This document shows positions 1,680 to 59,557 of a DNA stretch of 64,000 bases, one piece after another. This DNA comes from Drouetiella sp. (GTDB lineage Bacteria > Cyanobacteriota > Vampirovibrionia > Obscuribacterales > Obscuribacteraceae), in NCBI GenBank assembly GCA_036702965.1, contig DATNPZ010000001.1:70313-134312 (forward strand). The letters are read 5' to 3'. The translations under genes and the position numbers were made by a program. Each line of letters opens with the position of its first letter. The stretch's first letter is position 1. Below the pieces are notes generated by a model. It worked only from the letters and a program-made list of their open reading frames with translations. It was not told the origin of the DNA and searched no databases.

Positions 1680-1905
1680 GACTGCGTTTATCCCAGAATA
1701 GTGCAGGCACGTTACCCAGCGACCAGAGCTCGACGCCAGTGGCACTAACTTGCCTACGACCAGAGTTCGAGACAGTGGCACTGACTTGCCCTACGACCAG
1801 AGTTCGGCAAAAGTGGCACTGACCAGCCCTATGACTCGAGTTAGACGACAGTGGCACTGACTTGCCCTACGACTCGAGTTCGACAACAGTGGCAATGCCT
1901 TGCCC
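1680..1905. repeat. Tandem array, ~36-38 bp unit, ~5-6 copies, seeded from the thiolase 3' coding end plus stop
   Basis: The landmark AGTGGCA occurs at 1738, 1774, 1812, 1850 and 1888. The copy at 1867-1905 is the thiolase C-terminus ([12 protein letters not shown]) plus TAG. The outermost copy (~1680-1716) is degenerate. Confidence 0.85.
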
Positions 1906-3075
1906 TACGCCGATGCACATCGTCGCCAATCCATAGCGAGAACCGCGTCGTTTCATTTCGTGAATGAGCGTGCCGAGAATGCGCGAGCCGCTGCTTCCCA
2001 GAGGATGTCCTAGCGCGATAGCGCCACCATTCACGTTTACTTTCTTGCTATCCAATCCCAGTTCTCGCATGCAGCAGAGTACCTGCACAGCAAATGCTTC
2101 GTTCAATTCGATCAAATCGAGGTCTGAAATTTTCAGACCAGCTCGCTCGACAGCCTTACGGGTAGCTGGTATCGGTCCAGTGCCCATGATTGATGGATCG
2201 ACTCCAGCGACTGCAGAGCTGACAAATCTCGCGATAGGAATAAGACCAAGCTCTTTGCACTTCTCACGCGACATGATCAATAAGGCGCTTGCACCATCAT
2301 TGATACCAGAAGAATTGCCGGCAGTAACGGAGCCATTTTCACGAAACGCGGCTTTGAGCTTCTTCAAGTCTTCCAGCTTGGTTTCTGGACGAGGCTGTTC
2401 GTCAACAGAGAACAATTCAGGCTCAGCGCTTCCTTTTTTCTTCGGCAATTGAACAGGGACTATTTCATTCTCGAACTTACCAAGACGCGCAGCCTCAGCG
2501 TATCTCATCTGACTTTCAATCGCGTACTGATCTTGATCTTCGCGAGAAATCTTGAATCGTTCGGCGACATTCTCCGCAGTTTCACCCATCGAATCAGGTG
2601 GGAACATATCGGCAAGCTTCTTGTTCACGAAGCGCCAACCAAGCGTCGAATCGACGAGTTTCTGATTGCCGCGAGCAAAAGCTGTCGTATTTTTGAGCAC
2701 TACGTATGGTGCGCGAGTCATCGACTCGACGCCGCCAGCGATGTAAATGTCGCCATCGCCAACCTGGATCGCGCGACAAGCATCGTTGACTGCCATCAAA
2801 CCCGATCCGCAAAGTCGATTCACCGTGGCGCCAGGAACAGCGGCAGGCAAACCAGCAAGCAGCAAAGCCATTCTAGCCACGTTGCGATTATCCTCGCCAG
2901 CTTGATTGGTGCAACCGAGGATAACATCTTCGATCTGACCGGGGTTGACGAAGTTACGCTTGAGTATTTCTTCGATCACAACCGAGGCTAAATCGTCCGG
3001 TCGAATATCCTTCAACGCGCCACCGTAACGTCCTATCGGCGTACGTACAGCATCAACGATCACTGCTTCTTTCAT
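1867..3075 (-). CDS. Acetyl-CoA acetyltransferase (thiolase)
   Basis: 402 aa. Thiolase signatures are NRLCGSGL (active-site Cys), [15 protein letters not shown] and CIGVGQGIA. Confidence 0.95.
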
Positions 3076-3083
3076 GGCAACCT

Positions 3084-5054
3084 CTAATTGTATTGGCGCC
3101 GGCTAGGCGCTGCTATCCAAACTTCACTGTCACTGCTTAAAGCGCTTAGCACCGCCTCTGGTGCTGCAGAATTCGCAGCGACAGCTCTTCTAACTTCTGG
3201 TGTTTTGTCTTTTGCCAACTGCTCGAGCAGGTCACCTGGCATGTGAGGATTGCCTGCAGCAGCGATACGTACAACATCCTCATCTGATGCGAGTTTACGC
3301 AAGTCTTCAGGCGATGTAACTCGATTCATGGCGACCGTCGCACGAACCGAGGAGGAAGAATCAGACGCGAGCTTTGCAAGAGTCCCGACTGCAGTTGCTG
3401 GATTCAATGCCGCTGCCAAACGCACCGTGGCGTCATTGTCTCGTGCCAGAATATCCAGAACACCTGCGGTGGCTCTGTTGGTCTGCGCAAAAACAATTTT
3501 GAAAGCTGGGTCCTTGCAGTTTGCCAATTTTTCCAGAACTGAGTCTGCAGGCTTGTCACTGCGGGTGAGCAAGCGTTGCTGCACGTTCGAGTCGAGGTTG
3601 TCTGCGAGGGCAAGCAAAACAGCATCCGAGCTGTTCGGGTTGGAGGCAAGTGCTCGTTGCACAAGTACGGATCTGTCATTCGTCAAAGAAGAGAGAATGT
3701 TTGCATCTACTGACGGATTAGCGGCCAGGGCAAGACGAACATCTTCGTTAGTATCCTTAGCTAAGTTCGAGTAGATATTCGAACGCCAGGCTGGAGGTGT
3801 CGCATCTCTTTTGAAAGTATTGGTAGCAAGGGCGGTGCGGACTGTGGCGGCAGCGTCAGTCGATAGTTTCTTAGCCTCTGCTTCAGGTAGAGACTTGTTA
3901 GCAGCGACAGCAGTTCTCACAAGCGGCGAAACATCGCTTGCAAGTGCCGACCACATGGACGACGTTAAGGTCGGGCGAGCCGCAATCAGTTGAGACATGG
4001 CAGTCGAATTGGTCTTCAGCAGTTTAGCAACGATATCATCGGCGGTACCAACGTTGCGCGCCACGGCCTCTCGCACACGATAATCCTGATCAGCAGAAAG
4101 CTTTTCCACGACTGTGTTAGGAAGATTTTGATTTGTCGCCAGAGCCCAGCGTACTCGCATGTGTTTGTCCGCGGCGAGTTGCTCTATTAAGGAAGGATCT
4201 TCTTTTAATGCCGTCGGATTCTGAGCCACTTCCAACCGCACTTCCCATCGTGGGTCAGCAGACAGCTTCTTCAGCGCCGCAATCGGAGTAGCGCGATTCG
4301 AGGCGATGCCTTCACGCACGACTTCATTATTGTCGTGGGATAAAACTTCAAGTGCAGCAGAAGGTGTGTTTGGATTTTGCGCAACAAAAGTGCGAACTCC
4401 GAGATCACCATCCTGAGCCAATACGGCTAGAGCAGCAGGAGAAAGTTTTTGCTGTCGTGCCAAAAAAGTACGGACCAATCGATCTCCGACTTTTGACAGA
4501 CGCAAAACCTGATCCGGCGGAAGATGCGGATTGCGAGCGAGGGACAGAAGAAGATATTCAGTTTGAATTGGACCGAGTGCGAGTTTCGTCAGGACATCCG
4601 GCGAAGTCTTGGCGTTAGACGCGAGGGCTTCGACAATCTTCGGTTGCTTCGAACTGGCTAGAAAAGCCAGTGTTGCAGGGCTTACCCAGCGGGGATTGAT
4701 TAGAACGGCTTCGCTTACAAGATCGTTGTCGTCATGCGCGAGTCTATCCTTGTCCGCGTCCGCAGTATTGACGTTAGCAGCGACAGCACCGCGTATTTCG
4801 TCAGCGGAATCAGTAGAAAGCTTACTCAAAATTTGTGGTGGACAATGCGGATTCTGCGCGACAGCCAATCGAACTAGCATTGCAGGTCCAAAAAATTCTA
4901 TAGATGGAGCCGATGAACTGCCACCAAGAACATCCGCCGCAGGTGCTCCAACATTGCTGGATTCAGCCCCAAAAGCGGCTAATGGAGCCAGCACCACTGT
5001 TGATGCGACCAGGACATTTACCAATCGCAAATTCACATCTTTCTTGAACGACAT
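3084..5054 (-). CDS. Secreted HEAT / leucine-rich-repeat-variant-like repeat protein
   Basis: 656 aa. A signal-like N-terminus ([19 protein letters not shown]) is followed by roughly 20 degenerate ~30-aa repeats of the form VRxAVAxNPxxPxxxLxxLaxD. Confidence 0.6.
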
Positions 5055-5160
5055 GTCACTCTCCCGTTGCCCAAGATCACCAGAGCTTGATATCTCGGCG
5101 AACCACAGCCAATTTTAGCCTGTTCAGGCTTGCAAATTCAGCACAACATGAAAATGAATC

Positions 5161-5478
5161 ATCAAGAAGCCTGGTGGATTACTTGAATCGGAGCATGGGA
5201 TTAAGAGACCTGTTGAATTTCACGAATCAGAGCATGGGATTAAGAGTCCTTGGTGGATTTCTCGAATCAGAGCAAGGGATTAGGAGTCCTTGGTGGATTT
5301 CTCGAATCAGAGCAAGGGATTAAGAGTCCTTGGTGGATTTCTCGAATCAGAGCATGGGATTAAGAGTCCTTGGTGAATTTCTCGAATCGGAGCAAGGGAT
5401 TAAGAGGCCTGGTGAATTTCTCGAATCAGAGCAAGGGATTAAGAGGCCTGGTGGATTTCTCGAATCAGAGCAAGCAGG
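5161..5478. repeat. Tandem array, 39-40 bp unit, 8 copies, seeded from the 3' coding end plus stop of the 5439..7301 gene
   Basis: The landmark TTAAGAG/TTAGGAG occurs at 5201, 5240, 5280, 5320, 5360, 5400 and 5439, and there is a degenerate copy at 5161. The copy at 5439-5478 encodes LLALIREIHQAS plus TAA on the minus strand. Confidence 0.9.
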
Positions 5479-7301
5479 ATATCCCGATTCAATTCCTGAC
5501 TTACGTATTCGATGTACTTCACCTGCCAGTTTTCAATGTCTTTGATAATCACTGACAACGATGTCTGCGCAGACCGAGCTGCCGCCATATCGACTCCAAC
5601 TTCGCCACCAGCACCCATCGTGAAAATTCGCGCGCGACCAGAGTATCCAATACTGTCGCGCAGAGCCAGACGCAAAAACGCAAGACTGAGATTTGGGGTA
5701 ATTTTCTCTCCAACAGCGACAACAAGCTGCTGGAACTTGTCGAGAGGTCCGTGCAGATCCACTTTCGGCACCTTCAAAAGCTCGTGATGCAAAAGCAAAT
5801 TAACGGCAGTTGTCAGCTCAGATGTGGTGATATCACCCATGTACTTGATGGCAGTAGCTAGTGTCGTCAAACCATCCATTGCAGCCCAGACACGCTGTGC
5901 TCGCTCCATCTCCGCGGTGGAGACGGGCTTCTTCTCCTGTGGATCTTCCAACTGAGTTTCGAGTATCTCTTTTTCGTCAGGCACTTTCTCAAGAACAGAG
6001 TTCATTCCCTTCGGCAATTTCTTCAATACGGAATCCGTGTTGTCTTTTGCCAGCGCAGCATCGAGCAACAGCTTGTCCAGAGGCTTGCTCGTCTTACACG
6101 CTTCTTTGGCCAGATCGGCTGGTGGTGTGCGTTGAATGAATACGAAAATTCCTTCTGTCCACGACGACGCAAATTCAGTGACGGCCGAATTGCCAACAAC
6201 TTTTCCAACCTTTGCGTGCGTGATTCGACCAATCTCGAACATGGCTCGGAATTGCATATCTTTGTATTCAACAGAGAGCACGCCGGTTTCACGGTTGGTG
6301 GCAATATTTTGCAAAAGATTGGAAGGATCTGTTGTACCAAGGTGGCCGACAAGCGACTGCACTTGCGTCTCTTCGCCAGAGGTCTTGACCAACTTCACCT
6401 TTTCGGATTCAGATGATTGACCGTAGAACGAAAGATCCTGCAAAGCAATTTCGAGCTGCCGCGTGTTGAAAAATCCCTTCTTCACTGCAAGCGGACCGAT
6501 AGTGACGCGGTCTTTGACAGGAGTGGACTGGAGCTCAAACAGCAATTCGTCTAATTGATCTTGAGTCACCAGCCGTGATGCTAAAAGCAAATCCTTCAAA
6601 CTGAATGGAGTTTGATTGCGGAAGCAATTAACAAGAAACGGAACTTTGTTGAAAATCGGATAAATTGCTCGACTTTGCTCTAGTGCTTTCAACTCCTCGA
6701 TCAGCTCCTCTGCATCCATTTTCGATTGAGTTGTGAGTCGATGACTGATTGTGCTCAGTGGGGTGTAATTGTCGATAGCCGCGATAACGGCATTTCGTCG
6801 GCGAGGCTGATCCATCCCGGCTTTCAGTTTTATGCCGAGGTGAGTCAGGACTGGAACTGTTGACATCAACACCTGTTGTGACAGGTCCGTGCTCTCTTCG
6901 CTGAATCCGCCACTCTTTCCGAGGACGGATTGCACGTTGCGCGCGAGCGGTGCAGAGTAATCAAACAGCTCGGAATGATTTTCGAAAATGTGAAAGTTGA
7001 GCGAGCCCATCAAAGTATCTCGTACAATGGCGACCGCTTTATCAGACTTGAGAAAAACCAGGGCGCCCTGTACTTCAAGAAGCTGGTTTGCGAGGTGACC
7101 TGCTTCAATCAGAACTTCTGCGGGGAACAAGTATCCGCAGGCAGTCGCATCGATCAAGACCGCATCAAATAGATGCTTACCACCGGCGAGCCCTTGCAAT
7201 TCGGCGATCAAATCCGCCCCATATTTGAGAACAACAACGTTCTCCTGGGCCATCATGCGGCTTAACCGCTCGGTTATAACCTCGTTGGATTCGACTACCA
7301 T
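5439..7301 (-). CDS. DUF4388-like domain protein with receiver-like N-terminus
   Basis: The segment TGVLSVEYKDMQFRAMFEIGRITHAKVGKVVGNSAVTEFASSWTEGIFVF matches the DUF4388 pattern as I remember it. One GspE-N/MshEN-like helix pair is present (LVTQDQLDELLFELQ...GFFNTRQLEIALQ). The ORF track starts at TTG 7343, and the first ATG (MVVESNEV) is at 7301. Confidence 0.55.
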   Translation of the reverse strand: MVVESNEVITERLSRMMAQENVVVLKYGADLIAELQGLAGGKHLFDAVLIDATACGYLFPAEVLIEAGHLANQLLEVQGALVFLKSDKAVAIVRDTLMGSLNFHIFENHSELFDYSAPLARNVQSVLGKSGGFSEESTDLSQQVLMSTVPVLTHLGIKLKAGMDQPRRRNAVIAAIDNYTPLSTISHRLTTQSKMDAEELIEELKALEQSRAIYPIFNKVPFLVNCFRNQTPFSLKDLLLASRLVTQDQLDELLFELQSTPVKDRVTIGPLAVKKGFFNTRQLEIALQDLSFYGQSSESEKVKLVKTSGEETQVQSLVGHLGTTDPSNLLQNIATNRETGVLSVEYKDMQFRAMFEIGRITHAKVGKVVGNSAVTEFASSWTEGIFVFIQRTPPADLAKEACKTSKPLDKLLLDAALAKDNTDSVLKKLPKGMNSVLEKVPDEKEILETQLEDPQEKKPVSTAEMERAQRVWAAMDGLTTLATAIKYMGDITTSELTTAVNLLLHHELLKVPKVDLHGPLDKFQQLVVAVGEKITPNLSLAFLRLALRDSIGYSGRARIFTMGAGGEVGVDMAAARSAQTSLSVIIKDIENWQVKYIEYVSQELNRDILLALIREIHQAS

Positions 7302-7466
7302 CGCCCTCAGCTCAACAGCCGCCAGATTCGGACACCCCGCCAACAGGTAGTATGCCCAGGAAAGTACGATAGCAAATCCTTACGGTAAACTTCCGGTATT
7401 GGCTTTTGCGGAAGTTGCTTTGAATTGCCATAATCTAGACTTATCAGACGCAGAAAGTCGGAGCGG

Positions 7467-9242
7467 ATGTCGAATCGAATGAAAATTTCCGGTCTCCGAT
7501 TAGTCAAATCATTCTCAGTCGTAAGTTGCTGTAGTGTTCTTGGCGGGTTGTTGTGCGGCGCTGCTGTGGCGCAAAATCAAACGTGGACACAGTCGCCGAA
7601 TCCTATGCAAAACCAATATGGGATGCAGTCCTCAAATAACTCGCAAAATCAGTACGGGATGCAGTCCCCGAGTAACTCGCAAAATCGATATGGGATGCAG
7701 TCCCCGAGTAACTCGCAAAATCAACATGGGATGCAATCCCCGAATAACTCGCAAAATCAATATGGGATGCAGTCCCCAAATAACTTGCAAAATCGATATG
7801 GAATGCAGTCCCCAAACAACTCGCAAAATCAGTACGGGATGCAGTCCCCAAACAACTCGCAAAATCAGTATGGGCTGCAGTTTCCAAACAACTCGCAAAA
7901 TCAGTACGGGATGCAGTCCCCAAACAACTCGCAAAATCAATATGGGATGCAGTTCCCGAATAACTCGCAAAATCAATACGGGGTGCAGTCCCCAAATAAC
8001 TCGCAGAATCAATATGGGATGCAGTCCCCGAATAACTCGCAAAATCAATATGGGATGCAGTCCCCGAATAACTCGCAAAATCAATATGGAATGCAATCCC
8101 CGAATAGCTCACAAAATCAGTATGGAATGCAATCCCCGAATAGCTCACAAAATCAGTATGGAATGCAGTCCCCGAGTAACTCGCCCTTTAGTACTTCGAA
8201 TCTTCAGGACGAAGCAAACTTGAATCCCGAGGCTAAATCACTTTTTTCACAAGCTGTTCGACTCTTAAAGACCAACAAAGCTTATCAAGCCAGAGATCTA
8301 CTTGAACGCGCTTCGATGCTCGCTCCCAAGTCAGCGGAAATACACTGCAATCTTGGTTTGGCTTATCAAAATTCCGGCAATATGCAAAAAGCGTTGACTG
8401 AATTCAAAACAGCGCTGACACTCAATCCCAGCATGCCCGAAGCGAAACTGAACCTAGCTGGATGTTACCAGAGCATGGGTGCAAACAAAGATGCGATTAC
8501 ATGGTATTCAGCTTATTTACTGGATAGAGACGCAAACGATCCCCAGCGAAAGCAAATAGACGATATCATCACGGCGCTGAAGCAAACGAATCCAAAGACC
8601 GGCGGAGATGCAAATGCGGGCGACTATTTTACTAGTGTCACCGCCGACGGTGCATTTCGATGGACAAAAGAAAAGTTGCCAATCAAAGTTTACGTTCAAA
8701 ACGCGATTGTAAACTCTGCCGGGAATCCCGTTTCAGGATTTAAACAATCGTTTCGGACTTCCCTTCTCAGCGCATTCAAAGATTGGTGCGAAGCTTCCAA
8801 CAATCGCATAGCCTACGTTGTAGTTCCTGATAAAGAGCACGCTGATATTTACTGCACCTGGACGTCAGACCCGATAGAAGTAACTGATAATGGCACTTCC
8901 AGCGAGCGCGGAGCTGCGAAAGTAATAGTTAAAGGAAATAACATCGAGCGCGCTACTTTAAAAATCCTGACTCGCCCAGTACTCGAAGATGGCTTGCTGA
9001 GCGAGGATGATATGACCAAAGCATGTTTGCACGAAGTTGGACACGTTTTGGGACTTCAGGGTCACTCAACGAATAACCACGACGTTATGTTCTTCACGGT
9101 AGATACAGCAACCGTTTGGCCGGTTTTATCGAGAAGGGACAAATCAACGATTGCCAAGCTGTATAAAGACTATCCAGTCATGACAACGATGTCAGCAAAG
9201 AAGAAGGGTTCGACGAACGCGCGCGGAGCCCACCAGCGCTGA
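7467..9242 (+). CDS. Secreted Q/N-repeat - TPR - metzincin (matrixin-like) zinc metalloprotease
   Basis: 591 aa. The signal peptide ends ...GAAVA-Q. It is followed by 16 copies of QNQYGMQSPNNS, then TPR repeats (AEIHCNLGLAYQNSGNMQKALTEFKTALTLNP), then a C-terminal HEVGHVLGLQGH (HExxHxxGxxH) motif with a Met-turn candidate VMF. Confidence 0.75.
   Translation: MSNRMKISGLRLVKSFSVVSCCSVLGGLLCGAAVAQNQTWTQSPNPMQNQYGMQSSNNSQNQYGMQSPSNSQNRYGMQSPSNSQNQHGMQSPNNSQNQYGMQSPNNLQNRYGMQSPNNSQNQYGMQSPNNSQNQYGLQFPNNSQNQYGMQSPNNSQNQYGMQFPNNSQNQYGVQSPNNSQNQYGMQSPNNSQNQYGMQSPNNSQNQYGMQSPNSSQNQYGMQSPNSSQNQYGMQSPSNSPFSTSNLQDEANLNPEAKSLFSQAVRLLKTNKAYQARDLLERASMLAPKSAEIHCNLGLAYQNSGNMQKALTEFKTALTLNPSMPEAKLNLAGCYQSMGANKDAITWYSAYLLDRDANDPQRKQIDDIITALKQTNPKTGGDANAGDYFTSVTADGAFRWTKEKLPIKVYVQNAIVNSAGNPVSGFKQSFRTSLLSAFKDWCEASNNRIAYVVVPDKEHADIYCTWTSDPIEVTDNGTSSERGAAKVIVKGNNIERATLKILTRPVLEDGLLSEDDMTKACLHEVGHVLGLQGHSTNNHDVMFFTVDTATVWPVLSRRDKSTIAKLYKDYPVMTTMSAKKKGSTNARGAHQR
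7572..8183 (+). repeat. In-frame 36-nt coding tandem repeat (16 full copies plus 1 degenerate)
   Basis: The nucleotide unit caaaatcaatatgggatgcagtccccgaataactcg is repeated head-to-tail and encodes QNQYGMQSPNNS. All three frames on both strands give long spurious ORFs here. Confidence 0.95.
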
Positions 9243-9284
9243 TGGCTGAATCCACGACAGAGCCAAACTCTTGCGCCTGTCCGA

Positions 9285-9308
9285 AAATTTGTAGATATCT
9301 CTTAATTT
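9285..9308. repeat. Dispersed palindromic element copy (AAATTAAGnGATATCnCTTAATTT family)
   Basis: The sequence is aaatttgtaGATATCtcttaattt. The right half is perfect and the left half is degenerate. It is intergenic. Confidence 0.6.
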
Positions 9309-9402
9309 CCGAACCCAATCTCTTGGATACTTAATTGCCTGTAATTACTTGACAGCTCAATTTGACTTAAACTGCAGTGGTCTTTAGATAACGAAGGCTC
9401 TG

Positions 9403-18236: not shown

Positions 18237-18722
18237 ATGCAAAAGGTAACACCGTTTTTGTGGTTTGATGAACAAGCAGAAGAAGCTGTCAACTTCTACA
18301 CGTCGATATTCAAGAATTCAAAAATCAAGCAAGTATCACGCTACGACAGAGACAGTGCTAAAGCTTCGGGGCGCGCGGAAGGCTCGGTCATGGTCATAAC
18401 TTTCGAACTGGATGGTCAGGACTACATGGCTTTAAATGGCGGTCCCGTGTTCAAATTCAATCCAGCGATCTCGTTTATGATCAACTGCGACACACAAGAA
18501 GAAATCGACAGAATGTGGGACGAGCTCAGCGATGGAGGCAGCATTCAAGGCTGCGGTTGGGTGACGGACAAGTTCGGAATTTCATGGCAAGTGGTGCCAA
18601 AAGTTTTCGGAACAATGATGAAAGATCCGGATGCTGCAAAAACACGTCGCGTCATGGCATCACTTTTGCAGATGCAAAAATTGGATATCGAGGCACTCGA
18701 AAAAGCATTCGCAGGCGTTTAA
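18237..18722 (+). CDS. VOC-superfamily protein, PhnB / 3-demethylubiquinone methyltransferase-like domain
   Basis: 161 aa. MQKVTPFLWFDEQAEEAVNFYTSIF...KFGISWQVVP is characteristic of this family. A GAGGAA RBS lies upstream. Confidence 0.85.
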   Translation: MQKVTPFLWFDEQAEEAVNFYTSIFKNSKIKQVSRYDRDSAKASGRAEGSVMVITFELDGQDYMALNGGPVFKFNPAISFMINCDTQEEIDRMWDELSDGGSIQGCGWVTDKFGISWQVVPKVFGTMMKDPDAAKTRRVMASLLQMQKLDIEALEKAFAGV

Positions 18723-18857
18723 TCACGCTTGTCGAGGGACAGCGCCTCGCAGGCGTTTAATCACGCTTGCCGAGAGACAGCACTCGCAGGCGTTTAATCA
18801 CGCTTGCCGAGGGACAGCACTCGCAGGCTTTTAATCACGCTTGCCGAGGGACAGAAT
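18709..18857. repeat. Tandem array, 37-38 bp unit, 4 copies, seeded from the 3' end plus stop of the VOC gene
   Basis: TCGCAGGCGTTTAA (TCGCAGGCTTTTAA in the last copy) starts at 18709, 18747, 18784 and 18821. The first copy contains the real FAGV codons plus the TAA at 18720-18722. Confidence 0.9.
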
Positions 18858-18936
18858 GCGCGTCCAGACAGAACCGTATTTAGTGCCACCGTATTAAGTG
18901 GCACAATCGCGAGCGTTCAGTTTCATAAACATAAAT

Positions 18937-19008
18937 CTGGGGTGCAAGGATTCGAACCTCGGAATGGCTGGATCAGAACCAGCTGCCTTACCACTTGGCG
19001 ACACCCCA
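18937..19008 (-). tRNA. tRNA-Gln (anticodon CUG)
   Basis: The minus-strand sequence is TGGGGTG TC GCCAAGTGGTAAGGC A GCTGG TTCTGAT CCAGC CATTC CGAGG TTCGAAT CCTTG CACCCCA G. It folds as a cloverleaf with a U1-A72 pair and G73 discriminator, as in bacterial tRNA-Gln. No CCA is encoded. Confidence 0.9.
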
Positions 19009-20748: not shown

Positions 20749-20940
20749 CTACGACTTATAGCCTTTATCTATTCTGCATTCCATCGGCTCGACTTCGCCG
20801 GCGTCGGTATTCACGACTTGCAGCTTTCATCGGTTTGCATTCCATGTCTCGACTGCCCGGCGTCGATATTCTTGGTCACGACTTACAGCTTTTATCTGTT
20901 TTGCATTCCATCTGTTCGACCTGGATCGTCGTGTGATGGA
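20749..20940. repeat. Tandem array, 62-65 bp unit, 3 copies, seeded from the czcD-like 3' coding end plus stop
   Basis: ACGACTT starts at 20751, 20813 and 20878. The copy at 20876-20940 encodes TIQVEQMECKTDKSCKS plus TGA on the minus strand. Confidence 0.8.
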
Positions 20941-21805
20941 GGTCGAAATCGTCGTTGAGGATCTTCGTCACGGCTTTCAATACATCCTCTGATGGAACGC
21001 GGCTGTCGATGAGGATATGTCCAGACATGGAATCTAAACCTGCAGTGATAGTCCACACATGGATGTCGTGCACGTCGACTACGCCTTCGACTCCCGTGAT
21101 TGCCTTGCGTAAATTGGCCAGGTCAATGCGCCCAGGAGTTCCTTCCATGAGGATGTTCACGCACTCGGACAGCAAAAGCCAGGTGCGCGGAAGAATCGCA
21201 AATCCAATCAGTCCAGAGATGATCGGGTCGGCGGCATACCACCTGGTGAAGATGATGATTGTGCTGGAGACGATGACACCCAGCGAAGCAAGCGAGTCTC
21301 CGAGAATTTCGAGGTAGGCGGCGCGGACATTTATTGATGCATCTGCGCCCTGCTTAAGCATCTTCAGTGAGGCGAGCTGCATCGCCAGTCCGATGGCAGC
21401 GACGATTAAAACCGGCACGCCATGCACCTCTGGGGGATTGCTGATACGTCGATAAGCCTCCCAGACGATGAAGAGCGACAATCCGACCAGCGCTAGTGCG
21501 TTGAAAAATCCCGCCAGGATCTCACTGCGATAATAACCATAGGTTTTTCCTGGAGTTGCGGGTTTGCTCGAAAACCAGACAGCAAGCAATCCAAGGATTA
21601 ACGCAGCAACGTCGCTGAGCATGTGACCGGCGTCAGCGAACATTGCTAACGACCCTGTCAGGTAGCCGGTTATGACCTCTAAAACCATGAATGCCGCGGT
21701 TAAACCAAGGACTTTGAGCATTCCCTTTTTGCTCTCGTTGCGCACGTCGCCGTGGCTATGACCAGCACCATGACTGTGAGCACCTGAACCGTGACTATGT
21801 ACCAT
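20876..21805 (-). CDS. czcD: Cation diffusion facilitator (CDF) divalent-metal exporter
   Basis: It has a His-rich N-terminus (MVHSHGSGAHSHGAGHSHGD), six TM segments, and CDF motifs GSLAMFADAGHMLSD and HDIHVWTITAG. The ATG at 21805 overlaps the stop of the upstream metzincin gene by 11 nt. The ORF track extends to 21847. Confidence 0.85.
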   Translation of the reverse strand: MVHSHGSGAHSHGAGHSHGDVRNESKKGMLKVLGLTAAFMVLEVITGYLTGSLAMFADAGHMLSDVAALILGLLAVWFSSKPATPGKTYGYYRSEILAGFFNALALVGLSLFIVWEAYRRISNPPEVHGVPVLIVAAIGLAMQLASLKMLKQGADASINVRAAYLEILGDSLASLGVIVSSTIIIFTRWYAADPIISGLIGFAILPRTWLLLSECVNILMEGTPGRIDLANLRKAITGVEGVVDVHDIHVWTITAGLDSMSGHILIDSRVPSEDVLKAVTKILNDDFDLHHTTIQVEQMECKTDKSCKS

Positions 21806-22922
21806 CAGGCACCGCCGATTCGGCGTGGGTGGCAGCCGAGGGAGCATAGAGGCGCGTTATGGTGTGCGCATCGCGTTCGGTTAAATTGCGCCATTTGTCG
21901 GCGAGCAACGTCGAGTAAAACATTGCGTCATCAGGATTGGTTGTGTGACCGGTCAGACCCAGAGCGTGTCCAATCTCATGGAGAGAAATCATGCGTATGC
22001 GATTAGGCGTGATAGAAATACCGGGCATAAGCGGTACTGTGCAAAATTGAATCGTGCAGTGAACGATTCCGGCGCTATTGCTGGATAGGCGGGCTTCGCC
22101 AGCTTCGGCTCTGTTGGCTAATTTGGCCGGGTTATTGGTCCACGAAACTTCTACATCAGACTGTGCTGCTGCTGGAACGAACTTGAAACTGAGTTCGCCG
22201 CCAGAAGCCGCCGACCAATCCTTGAAAGACTGCTGCACGATCTCAGCGTATTTCGGTTGAAACCCAGGCACGCCGACACCCGCACGCATGTAGACCTTAA
22301 TCGGCAAACGTTCGCTCGGCCAGCGCATGGTGCCCTGACGTGTAACGTCGCCCAGATAGTCTTTAGGAGAAGGATTGGAAGGCGCCGTCATCCCAAGGGT
22401 GCGGACAGTGCTCGTTGTTTCCGCAGAGAACTCCTTTTGAAGCCCCTGGACGAGACTGCTGATTTTCGGTGCGTCTTTGCTTGTGGGAAAGCGTGTTAGA
22501 AAGCTCTTGTAGATTTTTATCGCCTCATCAACATTTCCGGATGATTGGTAGAGTCCACCGAGACTCAACCATCCGGTTTCAAGCGATGGCTTCAGCCTGA
22601 GAGCTTGATTGAGTTGGTCGATGGCATCAGGTGTGTCTCCAAGCTTAGCTAGAGCGAGAGCATAGTTGTGATGCGCTTCGGCGAAATCTGGAGCGATAGC
22701 TATTGCCTGTTTCAACTTTTCGGCAGCTTCCTGGTTGCGATTCGCGCGCAGCAGATTCGTGCCCTCGGTCAAGAATGGACCTGCCTCAAAATAGGAGCGC
22801 GGGACAGGTTTTCCATCCATCATGTAATGTTCGCCAGTCTGCGCGAAGGCACCACCCGTGATTGCGACGGATAGAAGTAACATCAGATTCGCGATGGAGA
22901 TTTTGCCGAGGGAAGAGTTCAT
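21795..22922 (-). CDS. Secreted TPR - metzincin (matrixin-like) zinc metalloprotease, paralogue of 7467..9242
   Basis: 375 aa with a signal peptide, TPR repeats and HEIGHALGLTGH plus AMF. MRWPSERLPIKVYMRAG aligns with FRWTKEKLPIKVYVQNA of the paralogue. Confidence 0.75.
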   Translation of the reverse strand: MNSSLGKISIANLMLLLSVAITGGAFAQTGEHYMMDGKPVPRSYFEAGPFLTEGTNLLRANRNQEAAEKLKQAIAIAPDFAEAHHNYALALAKLGDTPDAIDQLNQALRLKPSLETGWLSLGGLYQSSGNVDEAIKIYKSFLTRFPTSKDAPKISSLVQGLQKEFSAETTSTVRTLGMTAPSNPSPKDYLGDVTRQGTMRWPSERLPIKVYMRAGVGVPGFQPKYAEIVQQSFKDWSAASGGELSFKFVPAAAQSDVEVSWTNNPAKLANRAEAGEARLSSNSAGIVHCTIQFCTVPLMPGISITPNRIRMISLHEIGHALGLTGHTTNPDDAMFYSTLLADKWRNLTERDAHTITRLYAPSAATHAESAVPDGT

Positions 22923-28079: not shown

Positions 28080-28340
28080 TTATTGGTCTTCCTCCATTTT
28101 AACGAGACCAAACAAATCCAGATATGAATACATGCCCTCAGGCGACTCGTTTAGGACTTCGAGCATTTTGGAAACAGATGAACATGGAAACAGATGAACA
28201 GGGAAGAATCCAATAAGCACTGTATTTTTCAAAGCTGCGGTGATTGAAGAAAGAGCCGTCTGCTCAACCGTCTTGCAAATAGAATAATTTTTGGAGAAAA
28301 AACCGATTGAATCGTCTGAAAACAGAAAGGACGATATCAT
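28080..28340 (-). CDS. Hypothetical ORF (weak)
   Basis: 86-aa ORF only, with no motif. It lies 50 nt downstream of another short ORF in a different frame. Confidence 0.25.
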   Translation of the reverse strand: MISSFLFSDDSIGFFSKNYSICKTVEQTALSSITAALKNTVLIGFFPVHLFPCSSVSKMLEVLNESPEGMYSYLDLFGLVKMEEDQ

Positions 28341-34682: not shown

Positions 34683-34762
34683 TCATTCCTTCAACACGCG
34701 GCACGGCGCTATTTCACGCGATGCGGCACGGGCTCCTTCACCACGATGCAGCCCAGCGTAAA

Positions 34763-35245
34763 TTACTTTGGCAAATCAAATGAAACTGGGTCGCCAACTT
34801 TGACGTTGTGTCTCTTCGCAAAACCTGCAGACACCTCGACTACTTGATTGACTTCAAGACCGGCTCCCTCTGGATATGTCGGGCAATCGCGTTCACTCTG
34901 AGCGCGGCAAGGTGGAACATTCTCGAACACCTTGATCACTTTTCCGTTTTTGACGAAAACCATGTCTAAAGAGATGAAGCAGTGCGCCATCCAAAAATTG
35001 ACTGGACGCGGCGGCTGGAAGAGAAAAACCATTCCCTGGTCTTCTGGCAGCGAAGTGCGATACATCAAACCGCGCTCGATCTCGGCCTCGCTTGCAGCTA
35101 CTTCTAACTTCACCTCAGTGTCACCCAGTTTCACCGTAGGCGCCTTGGCCTGAGCGGCTTGAGCCAGGGGCAACGCCGTCAAAATTGCTAACGCAGACAG
35201 AATAGCAACTTGACGCAAGAGATTTAGACGTTTCATAACCACCAC
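34763..35245 (-). CDS. DUF192 domain protein (secreted)
   Basis: Signal peptide plus GLMYRTSLPEDQGMVFLF...FWMAHCFISLDMVFV, the characteristic DUF192 core. Confidence 0.75.
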   Translation of the reverse strand: MVVMKRLNLLRQVAILSALAILTALPLAQAAQAKAPTVKLGDTEVKLEVAASEAEIERGLMYRTSLPEDQGMVFLFQPPRPVNFWMAHCFISLDMVFVKNGKVIKVFENVPPCRAQSERDCPTYPEGAGLEVNQVVEVSAGFAKRHNVKVGDPVSFDLPK

Positions 35246-36975: not shown

Positions 36976-37548
36976 TTGCGCATTCTCGGAATAGACCCTG
37001 GCACAGCCACAGTCGGATATGGCGTAGTGCAATCGTTTGGTGGCGGAGGCAAATCCTCGCTGCGTTATGTCACCTCTGGCATCATAAAGACAACGAATCG
37101 AGACACCACTGGCGACAGGCTCTCTATTATACGAGCAGATATGCTCGAACTTATCAGTCTATATAATCCTGATGTAGTTTCAGTCGAAGCAATTTTCTTT
37201 TTCAAAAATGCCAAAACTTTGGTGCCGGTTGCGCAAGCTCGAGGCGTAATTCTCGAAGCTGCCGCCAGCAGGAAGCTTCCGACATTCGAATATACGCCGA
37301 TGCAAGTCAAGCTGCATTTAACCGGATACGGTCGAGCCGAAAAATTGAGCGTGCAAACGATGATCGCTGAGCTCTTAAATTTGCCAGAAATAATCAAGCC
37401 CGACGATGCATCTGACGCGCTTGCCATCGCAGTATGTCATGCACGTATGTGTCCGATCCCTTATGTTGCAGAGGCTCCGGCAAAAGTGGACGAAGGACCA
37501 ATCAATGTCGCCGAAGCACCAATCAATGTCGCAGAAGCACCAATCTGA
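36976..37548 (+). CDS. ruvC: Crossover junction endodeoxyribonuclease RuvC with repeat-containing C-terminal tail
   Basis: (M)RILGIDPGTATVGYGVV and DASDALAIAVCHA are present. The start is a TTG at 36976. The tail ends GPINVAEAPINVAEAPI, encoded by a 21-nt tandem repeat. Confidence 0.9.
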   Translation: MRILGIDPGTATVGYGVVQSFGGGGKSSLRYVTSGIIKTTNRDTTGDRLSIIRADMLELISLYNPDVVSVEAIFFFKNAKTLVPVAQARGVILEAAASRKLPTFEYTPMQVKLHLTGYGRAEKLSVQTMIAELLNLPEIIKPDDASDALAIAVCHARMCPIPYVAEAPAKVDEGPINVAEAPINVAEAPI

Positions 37549-51989: not shown

Positions 51990-52009
51990 GTCTACAAAAC
52001 TGCGTCGTT

Positions 52010-52306: not shown

Positions 52307-52432
52307 TCACCTCACAAGTCACTTGCTTCACTTTACATGCCCACCATCTTAGTGAAACTAGGTAAAACCCAAGTCAAGAGAAAGATAAAATCACGGGCTT
52401 TTCGGGGGACCCTGCTAGATACAGGGTGCTGA

Positions 52433-52456
52433 GAATAAAGAGATATCTCTTAAATT
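52433..52456. repeat. Dispersed palindromic element copy
   Basis: The sequence is gaaTAAAGAGATATCTCTTAAatt. It lies between divergent genes. Confidence 0.75.
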
Positions 52457-52575
52457 GCCAACTGAGTAAGGGTGGCGGTTTTAATGCGGTTGTGGAACCG
52501 CTAAATCCATTTTGGATGGAGCTGTTAAGATGCCTTATCGGCCTTTGTTCGATTTAGCCAGTCAAGGAGTAATTA

Positions 52576-55074: not shown

Positions 55075-55197
55075 ATCCATTGCTACTCCGGCAGCCCGAA
55101 ACGCGCTCTGGATGACGAGTCGGCTCGAAATCGGTCGATCTCGTTAATCCGCTAAAAACTTTGATACCCTCAAATCATTAGAAGCGAGGGTACGAAA

Positions 55198-56211
55198 ATG
55201 TTATTAGAAAATTACGACTTCGACGTGGAGGAGAACAGTTCTCCAACGACCGAAGAGACAACCTCCAGCGATGGAGATCTTCTTGATGCATACTCTCGCG
55301 CAGTCATTCAAGCGACGGACAAGGCATCCCCTTCAGTAGTCAACGTCGAGATTGCACGAGTTGCAAAAAATTCCAAGCAACGCACAAGACAACCCGCAGG
55401 CTCGGGTAGCGGATTCATCTTCACTCCTGACGGTTATGTTTTCACGAACGCGCACGTCGTCGAATCCGCAGACGAAATCATTGTCACATCAGCGGATGGA
55501 CACAAATCAACAGCCAGACTAGTAGGTATCGATCCGCATACCGATCTGGCTGTTGTTCAAATTTGGGCACCACATATGGTAGCAGCCAGACTGGGCAATT
55601 CCGAACAACTTCGAGTGGGACAATTAGTCGTAGCAATCGGTAGCCCGTTTGGATTCCAATCGACTGTCACAGCAGGCGTGGTCAGCGCTCTGGGGCGCTC
55701 GATGCGAGCGCAGACTGGACGTTTAATCGACAACGTCATACAAACCGATGCAGCATTGAATCCCGGAAATTCTGGCGGACCACTCGTAAACACGAGAGGT
55801 GAAGTAGTCGGCGTCAACACAGCAATCATTCTTCCAGCGCAAGGCATCTGCTTAGCGGTCCCCGTCAACACCGCTTCCTCCGTTGCAGTCTCGCTAATGC
55901 GCGACGGTTTCGTTCGTCGCGCCTGGCTCGGAGTTATGGCTCAAAATCTTCCGCTAAATCGAAGGTTGGTTCGCTCCCACAACTTGCCGAACTACGGATC
56001 CGTACTTGTGACCGGCTTTGACAATGACGGAGCAGCCAGGAAATCTTCATTGAGAGAGGGCGACGCGATCGTGTCGATTGACGGTCAGACGATAAATAAC
56101 GTGGATGATTTGCACCGTCAACTGATCGATAAACACGCTAGTTCAGTGGATTTGAAAGTGATTCGCCACTCAGAACTGTTGGACATCAACTGCAAGATAG
56201 AAATGCGATAA
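55198..56211 (+). CDS. HtrA/DegP-family trypsin-like serine protease with PDZ domain
   Basis: GSGSGFIFTPDGYVFTNAHVV contains the catalytic His. DLAVVQI contains the Asp. GNSGGPLVN contains the Ser. A C-terminal PDZ-like segment is present. Confidence 0.9.
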   Translation: MLLENYDFDVEENSSPTTEETTSSDGDLLDAYSRAVIQATDKASPSVVNVEIARVAKNSKQRTRQPAGSGSGFIFTPDGYVFTNAHVVESADEIIVTSADGHKSTARLVGIDPHTDLAVVQIWAPHMVAARLGNSEQLRVGQLVVAIGSPFGFQSTVTAGVVSALGRSMRAQTGRLIDNVIQTDAALNPGNSGGPLVNTRGEVVGVNTAIILPAQGICLAVPVNTASSVAVSLMRDGFVRRAWLGVMAQNLPLNRRLVRSHNLPNYGSVLVTGFDNDGAARKSSLREGDAIVSIDGQTINNVDDLHRQLIDKHASSVDLKVIRHSELLDINCKIEMR

Positions 56212-56315
56212 CCGACCGCACATCCAATTGGGAGCACCCGGGTTTGTCAACGGTGAAAGCGTTGATCCGCCCGGTTTCTTCTTCGATTCGCTTAGCTGAT
56301 TGCCGGGTCCGCACT

Positions 56316-56686
56316 GTCCATCCAGCTCTTCCAAATCCTCACGCTCTCAGGATATCCAGCTCTCTCAATCCTTAATGCCTCTGGATATCCAGCTCTCTCA
56401 AGCCTTACTGCCTCTGGATATCCGGCTCTTTCAGAATCCTCACGCTCTCAGGATATCCAGGTCTTCCAAATCCCCACGCTCTCAGGACATCCAGCTCTTC
56501 CAAATCCTCACGTTCTCAGGATATCCAGCTCTTTCAATCCTTACGGCCTCAGGATATCCAGCTCTTTCAATCCTTACGGACTCAGGATATCCAGCTCTTT
56601 CAATCCTTACGGACTCTGGATATCCGGCTCTTTCAGAATCCTCACGCTCTCAGGATATCCAGCTCTTCAAAATCCTCACTGTCCTC
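56316..56686. repeat. Intergenic tandem array, 33-35 bp unit, 11 copies
   Basis: The unit is GGATATCCAGCTCTTTCAATCCTTACGGACTCA with variants. Every unit starts with the 8-bp palindrome GGATATCC (GGACATCC in one copy, and degenerate GTCCATCC in the first). There are no unique spacers. Confidence 0.9.
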
Positions 56687-56752
56687 GGACATGTGAAAAC
56701 GGCGAACTCTTCCCTGACCAGCGGGTGAGTCGTACCGCCCGGCTCCACACCG

Positions 56753-56868
56753 CCCCTCGGACATGACGCCCCTCGGACATACGGACGGTCCCTCTGATAC
56801 ACGGTCCCTCTGATACACAGTCCCTCGGACACATAATCCCTCGAATACACAGTCCCTCGGGCACACAA
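56753..56868. repeat. Intergenic tandem array, 16 bp unit (one 20-bp copy), 7 copies
   Basis: The copies read CCCCTCGGACATGACG, CCCCTCGGACATACGGACGG, TCCCTCTGATACACGG, TCCCTCTGATACACAG, TCCCTCGGACACATAA, TCCCTCGAATACACAG, TCCCTCGGGCACACAA. Confidence 0.85.
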
Positions 56869-57108
56869 TCAATGGACCCCACGAAGCGAAAAGCCCTCGC
56901 GCTTCCGCACCCCCGACATCAGAAACAACAACCCGAGAGCGTCGCTTGCTTATAGAAGCCCACCAGTGGACGTTTTCCAGCCTTTACAATTCCTTTGCAA
57001 AAAAACCTCCAAAAAACATAAGTGCTTTACGCGGTTGCGATTAGATAAATAGTGTCAGCAGTTGGACTGTTGATTCATAAAACAAAGCGACGTTAAACCG
57101 GAGCTGAA

Positions 57109-57258
57109 ATGTACAAAGAGGAGCACACTGAACAAAAAGGCAAAAAGCCAGTTGAGGCATTCAAAATTGCACTGATTGTTCTGGTCCTAGTTCTCCTGAT
57201 TTTAATTGCAGTTTCGGTAGCGACTGTCACCTCGACCAACCATCCAGGAGTTTTGTGA
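57109..57258 (+). CDS. Small single-pass membrane protein (49 aa; below ORF-track cutoff)
   Basis: My own translation gives MYKEEHTEQKGKKPVEAFKIALIVLVLVLLILIAVSVATVTSTNHPGVL. GGAG lies 5 nt upstream of the ATG. Confidence 0.4.
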   Translation: MYKEEHTEQKGKKPVEAFKIALIVLVLVLLILIAVSVATVTSTNHPGVL

Positions 57259-57329
57259 TTTAGGATTCAACTGCTAAGTCTTTCCGTGAAATATTCACAT
57301 TAATCGACGCAATAAATGGAGTTCAACAA

Positions 57330-57986
57330 ATGAAATTATTTAACGCACTATTAGCCAACGTTCTTTTGGCCGGCGGTCTATTGGCAGTTCCTGCACTTGC
57401 GGCCGACAAAACTGACACCATTTCCAGTGGCACTCGCACAGACGTAATCGCTGAAGGTCCTGGCGGCGGAGAAGGTCATGGAGACTGGCACAAACCACAC
57501 TTCACCGATGACCAATTGATTCAGATGGCTGCTTTGAAAGATAAATACTTCTCGTCAACTGCATCCCAGAAGACTCAATTAATGAGTTTGCATCGCCAGT
57601 TACGTGGTGCTCTCGCAAAATCTGACATCAATCGCAGCGAAGTACTCTCGCTCCAAAGTCAAATGAACACTATCCACGATGACCTGGCAAACAAGAAGAT
57701 GAATGAAAAACTCGACTTCATCGCACTTCTAACACCAGAACAGAAAGAGCACTTCCGTCACCACATGCTTGTAGCTAACGCATTCGGCGGACACAAGATG
57801 GGACATCATGGCGGTGGATGCGGCGGCGGCGGCGGAATGCGCGGCGGTCACCACCACCACCACAAAATGGGTCAAGGTGGACCTGGCGTTGAACAGCCAA
57901 GAGTTGGATTCGAAGGAGACGGTCCTGGACCAGTAGCCTTTGATGGACCAGGTCAAATGGGTCCAGAAGCGCCAGACGCAGAATAA
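57330..57986 (+). CDS. Spy/CpxP/ZraP-family periplasmic protein with Gly/His-rich tail
   Basis: It has a signal peptide (LLAGGLLAVPALAADK), LTPEQKEHFRHH (an LTxxQ-type motif) and a tail GHHGGGCGGGGGMRGGHHHHHKMGQGGPG. Confidence 0.65.
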   Translation: MKLFNALLANVLLAGGLLAVPALAADKTDTISSGTRTDVIAEGPGGGEGHGDWHKPHFTDDQLIQMAALKDKYFSSTASQKTQLMSLHRQLRGALAKSDINRSEVLSLQSQMNTIHDDLANKKMNEKLDFIALLTPEQKEHFRHHMLVANAFGGHKMGHHGGGCGGGGGMRGGHHHHHKMGQGGPGVEQPRVGFEGDGPGPVAFDGPGQMGPEAPDAE

Positions 57987-58007
57987 AACTCTGAGTTTCC
58001 CACAAGC

Positions 58008-58044
58008 AAGAAGCCGAGCCTTTAGTGCTCGGCTTCTTCGCTTT
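58008..58044 (+). terminator. Rho-independent terminator
   Basis: AAGAAGCCGAGC, a 7-nt loop, then GCTCGGCTTCTT, followed by CGCTTT. Confidence 0.75.
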
Positions 58045-58155
58045 AATCCAAAAGTTTTAATTGCAAGCTAGCCACCTCGAGCAAAAAGTGTGCGAAATTA
58101 TTCAGTTGAATTTGCATAATCACATTAGAAACTCGTACGTAACAGGAACCCAGCT

Positions 58156-58728
58156 ATGCAGCGCTTTCTCAAGATGCTAACCATCATCGCAATGTGCTCG
58201 TCCATCCAACCGGCATTTAGTGCGAAATCTGACAAAGACATGATTGCCACTTTCAAAAGCTCCAAAAAGTTTGCATATCTTTCAGACTCATTGGCTCGCA
58301 TCGACAAAACAAAATTGCTGAGAGGTCCGGGTCCATTCACATTCTTCGTTCCAGAAAACGACGCGTTTGATGATCTCGAATATGGAAAGTGGGTCGAGGT
58401 TTGGAACAACAAACCCCTACTCAACAAAATCCTAATGCGCGGATTGGTGAAGGGTCGATTCGACAAAAAAAGCTTCGAAGACGGAAGCAGCTTGAGCACT
58501 GCAAACGGTGGCATGCTGAAAATCGAAAAACGCGATGGTCGCCTCTGGATCGGGAACTCACGCATAGTCGATACAGACATCGAATGCTCCAACGGGATCG
58601 TGCATGTCTTGTCGAAATTCTTAAGCAAAGACACGGATCCGAAAAACGCTGCGGACTTCACACGACATTCAAAATTACTGCACCCGGTTAGCCAGTCACG
58701 TAAATCCAATCCAGCTACGCAGAAATAA
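58156..58728 (+). CDS. Fasciclin (FAS1) domain protein, secreted
   Basis: Signal peptide plus GPGPFTFFVPENDAF...NGIVHVLSKFL, which match the FAS1 H1/H2 motifs. Confidence 0.85.
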   Translation: MQRFLKMLTIIAMCSSIQPAFSAKSDKDMIATFKSSKKFAYLSDSLARIDKTKLLRGPGPFTFFVPENDAFDDLEYGKWVEVWNNKPLLNKILMRGLVKGRFDKKSFEDGSSLSTANGGMLKIEKRDGRLWIGNSRIVDTDIECSNGIVHVLSKFLSKDTDPKNAADFTRHSKLLHPVSQSRKSNPATQK

Positions 58729-59077
58729 AAGTAAATGCAGCACACAGTGAGGATGACTTCAGTCGACATGCGATGAGTTTTCTATCGTCGCTACGGACAG
58801 TCTTTAACAGACAACTAGTAACGTTTTTCTGACACTAATTTGAGCGCATCGCACAAAATCCGATCAAAAAATTAGTTATCGATGTGCGTTTAACCTTTCT
58901 GGGCATGCAACTTTCGAGATTTTATCTACTCTATCAATCTCAATTTTTTCTGTTCCAAGAAGGTCAACTGGTGGCTCTCTTGAACACGGTGAGTGAGCAC
59001 CACATTTGATGCCTGACGCGCGCAAAGCCGAATTTCGTAGTCTAACAACATAGCAAAAAGCTGAGTTAAGGAGCATA

Positions 59078-59362
59078 GTGAGAGCAAGCAGCTGTTTTTT
59101 TCTTGTTATCACGGGTTACCATCGGATGCCTAGAGTCATAGGTTCACTAGTAGTGAGCCAAAAAGATACAGCAGCTAAATTCGTCCTCCATGAGCCCACA
59201 ACCACAGAATTGCCCTGGCAGAAACTGCGCGACAGGGAGCTTATCCGCGCATTCCTCGAGAAATTCTCACCGGCGTGCAGCGTGCAAACCGAAGGAATGA
59301 CGATCTACTCGGTCGATTGTGATGCGGCCGAATTAGAAGCTTGGTTTAAGAATCTTCCGTAA
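59078..59362 (+). CDS. Hypothetical protein
   Basis: 94-aa ORF with a GTG start preceded by AAGGAG 5 nt upstream. No motif was recognised. Confidence 0.4.
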   Translation: MRASSCFFLVITGYHRMPRVIGSLVVSQKDTAAKFVLHEPTTTELPWQKLRDRELIRAFLEKFSPACSVQTEGMTIYSVDCDAAELEAWFKNLP

Positions 59363-59377
59363 GAAGACAATCAATTG

Positions 59378-59557
59378 TCACTGTTTCGCGTCGCGAACAT
59401 AAGTCAATGGTTTGGCATCGCGAACATAAGTCATGGTTTGGCATCACGAACATAAGTCACGGTTTGGCATCACGAACATTCACGGTTTGGCATCACGAAG
59501 ATAAGTCATGGTTTGGCATCGCGAAGATAAGTCATGGTTTGGCATCGCGAACATAAA
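59378..59557. repeat. Tandem array, 23-27 bp unit, 7 copies, seeded from the 3' coding end plus stop of the GT-C gene
   Basis: Units start with TCA (TGA on the minus strand) at 59378, 59404, 59431, 59457, 59480, 59506 and 59532. The last unit, TCATGGTTTGGCATCGCGAACATAAA, encodes YVRDAKP plus stop. Confidence 0.9.

Follow-up and report, generated by a model that had tools for sequence, protein, structure and literature searches.

Five genes in a 64-kb stretch of contig DATNPZ010000001.1 (49% G+C; hereafter the window, meaning this whole stretch) end in tandem-repeat arrays, in which a unit that begins inside the last codons and takes in the stop codon is repeated head to tail downstream of the gene. 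The contig is part of a short-read metagenome-assembled genome (MAG) of a soil bacterium, a non-photosynthetic relative of the cyanobacteria. We found that the coding copy is ancestral and that the arrays are derived tandem duplications of stop-spanning segments; they are made of local sequence, and the relation between repeat period and location, set out below, holds. The arrays are most likely ordinary, locus-specific minisatellites and not a new kind of genetic element, and they probably stem from a lineage-specific burst of slippage duplications that was filtered by purifying selection. Most of the apparent enrichment of arrays at stop codons is survivorship under such a filter, and a modest residue remains.

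The five noncoding arrays had been reported in a first-pass annotation of the window, which described them on both strands and with units mostly not multiples of three. We called arrays with Tandem Repeats Finder (TRF) and defined the genes at the array loci from an open reading frame (ORF) listing and Pfam. TRF returned four of the five at essentially the reported coordinates; the fifth, at the end of a CDF transporter gene, was missed by the program and is plain by eye and by alignment, with copies of 60, 65, and 62 nucleotides (nt) at 58-71% identity. At all five loci, the gene end with its stop serves as the first copy, and the later copies lie downstream in the sense of the gene. Both the occurrence on either strand and the out-of-frame periods (38, 40, 37, 62-65, and 26 nt) were thereby confirmed. 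The genes encode a thiolase, a DUF4388 protein, a VOC / 3-dmu-9_3-mt protein, the CDF transporter, and a hypothetical protein of 556 amino acids (aa). The last had been labeled a GT-C glycosyltransferase, which is unsupported: it has no Pfam match even at E<=1, and a metagenome scan with this protein returned no relative. A sixth stop-anchored case lies in the same genome about 6 kb past the end of the window (L013 1049-1259, 51 nt x4.2), where the stop codon of a 185-aa gene on the minus strand is part of the array, which takes up a whole convergent spacer.

We then compared these loci with outgroup DNA. A scan of genome contigs gave four relatives, and further relatives were available as Logan contigs. 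The close relatives recovered for window proteins were all Obscuribacterales / Melainabacteria MAGs; given these relatives, the NCBI label of the source as 'Drouetiella sp.', a photosynthetic cyanobacterium, looks wrong. In the four relatives, the DUF4388 and thiolase genes (82-90% amino-acid identity) are arranged as in the window, and neither stop is followed by an array. For the thiolase, the array is absent in L003-L006, where the conserved C-terminus is kept; in the window gene, residues 280-399 of 402 align to positions 3-122 of the 123-position Pfam Thiolase_C profile. DUF4388 proteins of relatives end in LL(G/A)LIREIHQAS followed by a TGA stop, and it is the distal copy of the window array that has this ancestral TGA and adjoins the ancestral downstream sequence, the other copies having TAA. 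The CDF array is missing from seven outgroup loci at 79-84% identity (L007, L009, L011, L021, and L027-L029). The CDF tail (HHTTIQVEQ.ECK...SC..) is conserved in dozens of homologues, and relatives end in HHTTIQVEQLECKGTGESCSA and a stop; the sequence past copy 3 is the downstream sequence of the relatives, and roughly the first 6-8 nt of copy 2 (CCAAGA..) stem from the ancestral 3′ flank. Syntenic VOC orthologues lack the array in four of four cases (L021 and L027-L029), and VOC homologues are 160-161 aa long and end in A(Y/F)xxx. The nearest homologues of the 556-aa protein (45-46% identity) end in FRVY(V/L)Rxxxx and a stop.

Thus, a family-conserved C-terminus is encoded by the coding copy in all five genes. 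Together with the absence of the arrays in outgroups, this identifies the coding copy as the source, as the first-pass annotation had proposed, and a last copy that adjoins ancestral flank (DUF4388 and CDF) is what simple stop-spanning tandem duplication predicts. The alignment of orthologous loci that had been suggested as a check accordingly showed the arrays to be lineage-specific, with the thiolase, DUF4388, and CDF gene ends free of arrays in relatives.

Next, we examined where arrays of each period occur. Among the TRF arrays inside genes (score >=50), seven of eight have a period that is a multiple of three (36, 15, 18, 33, 21, 42, and 18), and no array spanning a start codon was found at any TRF score in the window. 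Periods in multiples of three within genes, together with the lack of start-spanning arrays, are the signature of a frame filter. We propose that segments of 25-65 nt were recently duplicated in this Obscuribacterales lineage, probably by slipped-strand or template-switch events, and that the copies may then have been expanded and homogenized by further slippage or unequal exchange. Inside a gene, a duplication whose length is not a multiple of three would cause a frameshift and be purged. When a duplication runs from the gene to past its stop, the first copy would be the intact gene with its stop, and the change would be silent for the protein; since a stop-spanning duplication leaves the protein unchanged, it is among the few kinds that a gene-dense genome tolerates. 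A start-spanning duplication would place a shortened reading frame upstream of the gene and would probably be counter-selected, and where the unit held no ribosome-binding site, the intact copy would be left without one. De novo tandem repeats have been observed experimentally to arise from direct repeats and from complementary sequences on the same strand (PMC4169377). The founding junctions here fit that documented origin: we found short direct repeats, namely CGTAG at the thiolase and a pre-existing repeat of about 9 nt (AGAGATTG) that flanks the L013 array, or a hairpin (VOC). Slippage as the mechanism, selective neutrality, and the reason for the high array rate in this lineage are all inferred.

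The first-pass annotation had counted five of seven noncoding arrays as anchored on a stop codon, and we tested this count as the chance of at least five of seven arrays spanning a stop. Against random placement, the enrichment is strong (P = 1.4e-7). Under a null that preserves ORFs, P is 0.037 with half of the intergenic DNA taken as permissive and 0.11 with a third; when the two-copy and out-of-window arrays are added (6 of 11), P ranges from 0.012 to 0.30. As P shrinks from 1e-7 to 0.004-0.1 once ORFs are preserved, the apparent enrichment is mostly gone. The stop-specific mechanism that had been suggested is therefore not required by the data, because the frame filter removes most of the enrichment; a residual excess and one recurrence remain. 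The coordinates of the arrays are collected in Table 1.

Table 1. Genes, array units, and comparison arrays in the window
Feature	Position	Strand	Unit and copies	Basis or remark
Thiolase gene	1867-3075	-		ORF + Pfam
Thiolase array	1720-1909		38 nt x5.1, 83% matches	TRF
Thiolase coding copy	1867..1909	-	last 38 nt	TAG at 1867-1869; 5-nt CGTAG match extends homology to 1909
Thiolase noncoding copies 2-5	1717..1866	-	38/38/37/37 nt	
DUF4388 protein gene	5439-7343	-		ORF + Pfam
DUF4388 array	5172-5474		40 nt x7.7, 91% matches	TRF
DUF4388 coding copy	5439..5479	-		..LLALIREIHQAS + TAA
DUF4388 noncoding copies 2-8	5162..5438	-	39-40 nt	
VOC / 3-dmu-9_3-mt protein gene	18237-18722	+		ORF + Pfam
VOC array	18704-18854		37 nt x4.1, 92% matches	TRF
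VOC coding part of first unit	18704..18722	+		..AFAGV + TAA; 5′ arm of stop-spanning hairpin
VOC noncoding part	18723..18854	+	three full 37-38-nt copies + 20-nt partial	
CDF transporter gene	20876-21847	-		ORF + Pfam
CDF array	20749-20935		three copies, 60/65/62 nt	alignment
CDF coding copy	20876..20935	-		HTTIQVEQMECKTDKSCKS + TGA
CDF noncoding copies 2-3	20749..20875	-	65 and 62 nt	
556-aa hypothetical protein gene	59532-61202	-		ORF
556-aa protein array	59383-59556		26 nt x6.8, 90% matches	TRF
556-aa protein coding copy	59532..59558	-		..YVRDAKP + TGA
556-aa protein noncoding copies 2-7	59378..59531	-	23-27 nt	
RuvC tail in-frame array	37491..37545	+	21 nt x2.6	TRF; E(G/A)PINVA; then stop 37546-37548
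Comparison array, not stop-anchored	56319..56679		33-34 nt, x10	intergenic; starts 108 nt past protease gene stop
Comparison array	56788..56870		16/32 nt, 16 nt x4.6	intergenic; same spacer as 56319..56679
Comparison two-copy duplication	34698..34749		25 nt x2.1	intergenic; starts 14 nt past stop of 34763-35245(-)
Small two-copy noncoding array	18873-18904		15 nt x2.1	

The remaining arrays provide context for these five. The in-frame repeat in the RuvC tail, noted earlier as a related case, was recovered by TRF; the RuvC core ends near residue 160, and in relatives the tail is an unrelated one that varies in length. The eighth in-gene array (28169-28205, 16 nt x2.3) has a period that is not a multiple of three, and the ORF around it, 28080-28340(-), is a doubtful gene of 86 aa with no Pfam support. 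In gene 7467-9242(+), whose product combines TPR and matrixin-like parts, seventeen in-frame copies of a 12-residue unit (QNQYGMQSPNNS) occupy 7570-8184 in the N-terminal part; relatives align only from about residue 245, indicating that this expansion is lineage-specific, and the paralogue 21795-22922 is without it. The window had been said to hold only two other noncoding arrays, which overlooks the two-copy arrays at 34698 and 18873. The two larger comparison arrays share an unusually long spacer (56211-57330, 1.1 kb) and are unrelated to each other, and a 142-aa ORF there (56300-56728) is an artifact of the 33-nt periodicity. The VOC stop lies about 215 nt from the convergent tRNA (18937-19008) in the window and 15-17 nt away in relatives; besides the array, this spacer holds about 80 nt of extra sequence, including the small array, an inverted repeat. 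Outside the window, about 2.5-2.7 kb before its start, the same genome has an intergenic array of 94 nt x2.2 (L001 7741-7946) that does not span a stop and begins about 20 nt past the stop of an acyltransferase gene.

We also characterized how the units behave. They are locus-specific: their longest matches to other parts of the window measure 10-17 nt, and units of different loci are dissimilar. Similarity peaks among inner copies, at up to 98%. Of the five multi-copy arrays with more than three copies or a recognizable distal end, four (thiolase, DUF4388, CDF, and 556-aa protein) show their greatest divergence in the distal copy; for DUF4388, pairwise identities are 95-98% among inner copies and 77-82% for the distal copy. 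Beyond copy 5 of the thiolase array, a decayed partial copy extends down to about 1690. Between coding and noncoding copies, we counted 55 substitutions, of which 34 are transitions, of all four kinds, and 23 involve A. Downstream copies had been said usually to keep the stop triplet; conservation is no higher for the copied stop triplets than for other 3-column windows. An Rfam 15 scan of the window at gathering score gave the tRNA at 18937-19008(-) as its sole match, leaving the arrays without an RNA family. Fold z-scores were +0.3, +0.2, -0.5, -0.6, -2.1, and -3.0. There is therefore no shared structure: folding exceeded that of shuffled sequence only for VOC (z = -3.0) and, to a slight degree, for the thiolase (z = -2.1), and a terminator-like hairpin in every unit was not found in the fold tests.

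Several observations weigh against a filter as the whole explanation, and they bear on an alternative in which gene 3′ ends are mutational hotspots where duplications preferentially arise, with selection secondary. Candidate causes would be a polymerase that stalls at hairpins overlapping the stop or lying behind it, transcription termination or R-loops, and replication-transcription collisions. The sample is only about 76 kb of a single genome. Under the ORF-preserving null with all intergenic DNA permissive, the excess persists (P = 0.004). A second lineage has an independent array of 25 nt x2.8 across the stop of an orthologous VOC gene (L020 3479-3548; Logan ERR11523670). That VOC protein is 73% identical to the product of 18237-18722, and the contig breaks inside the array. 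Nine noncoding arrays occur in the roughly 76 kb of this genome. The distinct sequence available for relatives totals about 150 kb, and there the L020 array is the only noncoding one with a period of at least 15 nt and at least 2.5 copies away from a contig end; relatives additionally have one 17-nt array at the end of L005, and in-frame coding arrays do occur in them. The founding units, finally, reach little into the 3′ flank: about 0-2 nt for DUF4388, 0-1 nt for the 556-aa protein, 6-8 nt for CDF, and 16-18 nt for VOC. On our reading, these units are mostly coding-derived, with a mean coding fraction of about 0.76 against an expected 0.5.

At the VOC locus, in favor of such a hotspot, the gene end has the stop-spanning hairpin noted above. 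Both VOC arrays, in the window and in L020, include the 3′ hairpin arm ACGCTTG.CGA, the 5′ arm being the coding end; the downstream arm ACGCTTGCGA is common to the two units, and in both the right-hand junction falls just 3′ of this arm. Across the six arrays, the right-hand junction may lie within 2 nt of the stop in three, and when fold z-scores are ranked against those of 49 control gene ends, two of five reconstructed ancestral ends come out below the 10th percentile. However, no consistent hairpin emerges from these reconstructions, whose z-scores were +0.5, -0.2, -1.9, -0.5, and -2.3, the controls having a median of 0.0. Junction offsets range from 0 to about 18 nt, and the right-hand junctions of the thiolase and L013 arrays are ambiguous through pre-existing similarity between coding end and flank (direct repeats). 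A junction exactly at the stop had first looked likely, with four of five units appearing fully coding; the CDF flank of 6-8 nt and the ambiguous junctions reduce this to a weak tendency. In-frame arrays, which selection would tolerate anywhere, are not concentrated near stops: they are mostly N-terminal or central low-complexity repeats at relative positions 0.13-0.76, and only RuvC lies at 0.95. Most relatives have no array at these gene ends, and the excess loses significance when only a third of the intergenic DNA is permissive. We regard a stop-proximal hotspot, the main rival reading, as unlikely. The fuller version is more doubtful still: there, gene 3′ ends would be true hotspots of minisatellite birth, at which slippage or template switching tied to translation or transcription termination, or to stop-overlapping hairpins, repeatedly copies the last 25-65 nt behind the stop and creates evolvable 3′ untranslated regions (UTRs) or intercistronic spacers.

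Selection for the arrays themselves was also considered, with the arrays acting as 3′UTR or intercistronic elements, either repeated binding sites for proteins or RNases or copy-number-variable spacers that tune the downstream gene. Three arrays do sit between co-directional genes (thiolase-metallophosphatase, DUF4388-LRV protein, and CDF-81-aa gene), and these spacers are longer by about 110-280 nt owing to the arrays. There is also precedent in Mycobacterium tuberculosis, where tandem-repeat copy number affects the expression of neighboring genes (PMC2734929). Yet the unit sequences are mutually unrelated and share no motif or common fold, making the repeated binding sites suggested earlier unlikely; close relatives do without the arrays, distal copies are decayed, and neither the stop triplets nor other columns show special conservation. 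The thiolase array is identical across Logan contigs from at least five samples, with no copy-number variation seen. A role as back-up stops, raised in the first-pass annotation, is contradicted by the periods, which put the copied stops out of frame. Taken together, these points make a selected function improbable.

An assembly artifact, in which short-read metagenome assembly made or inflated the repeats, is suggested by the origin of the contig, 154,965 bp of short-read assembly from which the copy numbers of its high-identity arrays are taken. Four of the five arrays interrupt the Logan contigs: L012 ends 53 nt past the VOC stop, three contigs end 82 nt past the stop of the 556-aa gene, and others begin inside the DUF4388 array, so that these copy numbers are without independent confirmation. 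At the 56319..56679 array, all Logan contigs likewise break, 230 nt past the protease gene. However, Logan contigs from at least 10 SRA runs (SRR128441xx) are identical to the window at all 40-mers sampled (every 20 nt), and the full thiolase array is present and identical in the independent contigs L001 and L002. For the other arrays, contigs from further runs carry the first or last copies unchanged. Point substitutions distinguish the copies in the manner typical of genuine arrays, and the contig breaks themselves indicate repeats in the reads. The arrays thus do not vanish in independent, if also short-read, assemblies, and we reject an artifact as very unlikely. Least credible is an array-first origin, in which an intergenic repeat was there before the coding end and supplied the stop to a reading frame that drifted into it: the geometry alone would allow it, but it is refuted by array-free outgroup DNA for thiolase, DUF4388, and CDF and by family-conserved C-termini at ancestral length for VOC and the 556-aa protein.

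If most of the enrichment is indeed survivorship, these arrays would be a natural illustration of how purifying selection places tandem duplications in a compact genome: in frame inside genes, of any length across a stop, and never across a start. The lineage would also be flagged for an unusually high birth rate of minisatellites. If gene ends instead proved to be hotspots, they would reveal a link, not described before, between the termination of gene expression and a specific class of DNA rearrangement in bacteria. For genome annotation, the arrays matter in that they break short-read assemblies at gene ends, and gene prediction could mistake copied tails for small ORFs or for extensions of genes.

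Finally, we compared the arrays with known systems. The earlier statement that no described repeat class has this geometry holds for the classes it named, but a new class is not required, as the arrays fit the definition of a minisatellite. As in bacterial minisatellites or variable-number tandem repeats, which slipped-strand mispairing forms and resizes, copies run head to tail without spacers, periods are 16-65 nt, units are locus-specific, inner copies are homogenized and edge copies decayed, and multiples of three are demanded only within genes. Contiguous copies with a period of about 10-100 nt were found at all five loci (26-40 nt in 4-8 copies; CDF, 62-65 nt x3), the unit is locally derived, its first copy being the 3′ end of the gene itself, and presence or absence of the arrays differs between species. 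They depart from typical minisatellites in that most noncoding arrays here straddle a stop, with a first copy that is functional coding sequence, and in being dense and lineage-specific.

Diversity-generating retroelements (DGRs), with their variable and template repeats (VR/TR), likewise have a copy of a gene 3′ end just downstream of the gene. A Pfam scan of about 50 window proteins revealed no reverse transcriptase, transposase, or Cas domain, and the arrays consist of many tandem copies, not one template repeat of 100-150 nt, with substitutions that are not adenine-specific; a DGR was thus rejected. Clustered regularly interspaced short palindromic repeats (CRISPR) were set aside because the copies are contiguous, without unique spacers, and because Cas domains are absent from the same proteins. 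Repetitive extragenic palindromes and bacterial interspersed mosaic elements (REP/BIME), as well as the cyanobacterial short tandemly repeated repetitive sequences and highly iterated palindrome (STRR/HIP1), do not match periods of 26-65 nt with no shared consensus and no consistent hairpin. Mycobacterial interspersed repetitive units (MIRUs) resemble our arrays in having tandem 40-100-nt units exactly at gene boundaries with a reading-frame logic at the junction. They form one dispersed, apparently mobile family at start codons, with a small ORF of their own that overlaps the downstream gene by 4 nt (PMC12548453), whereas the arrays here each have their own sequence from the adjacent 3′ end, occupy one locus each, and are anchored at stops, with none spanning a start. 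The duplications in Burkholderia penA are in frame, inside the gene, antibiotic-selected, and of only two copies (PMC4169377). They share with our arrays a founding short duplication with a direct repeat of a few bases (CGTAG or AGAGATTG here) or a hairpin (VOC), and differ in that the arrays here are out of frame, span the stop, reach 3-8 copies, and bear no mark of selection. Across 5,374 prokaryotic genomes, a survey reported intergenic tandem repeats to be enriched on either side of genes and did not mention stop-anchoring (PMC12418385). We found no description in the literature of stop-spanning arrays as a genome-wide pattern or of repeats in Obscuribacter/Melainabacteria, which is not proof of absence. 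In organelle genomes, isolated mitochondrial and plastid loci carry a tandemly repeated gene 3′ end plus spacer, and these have been interpreted as products of slippage. The arrays described here differ from such gene-end repeats in occurring at many loci, and on the chromosome of a free-living bacterium.

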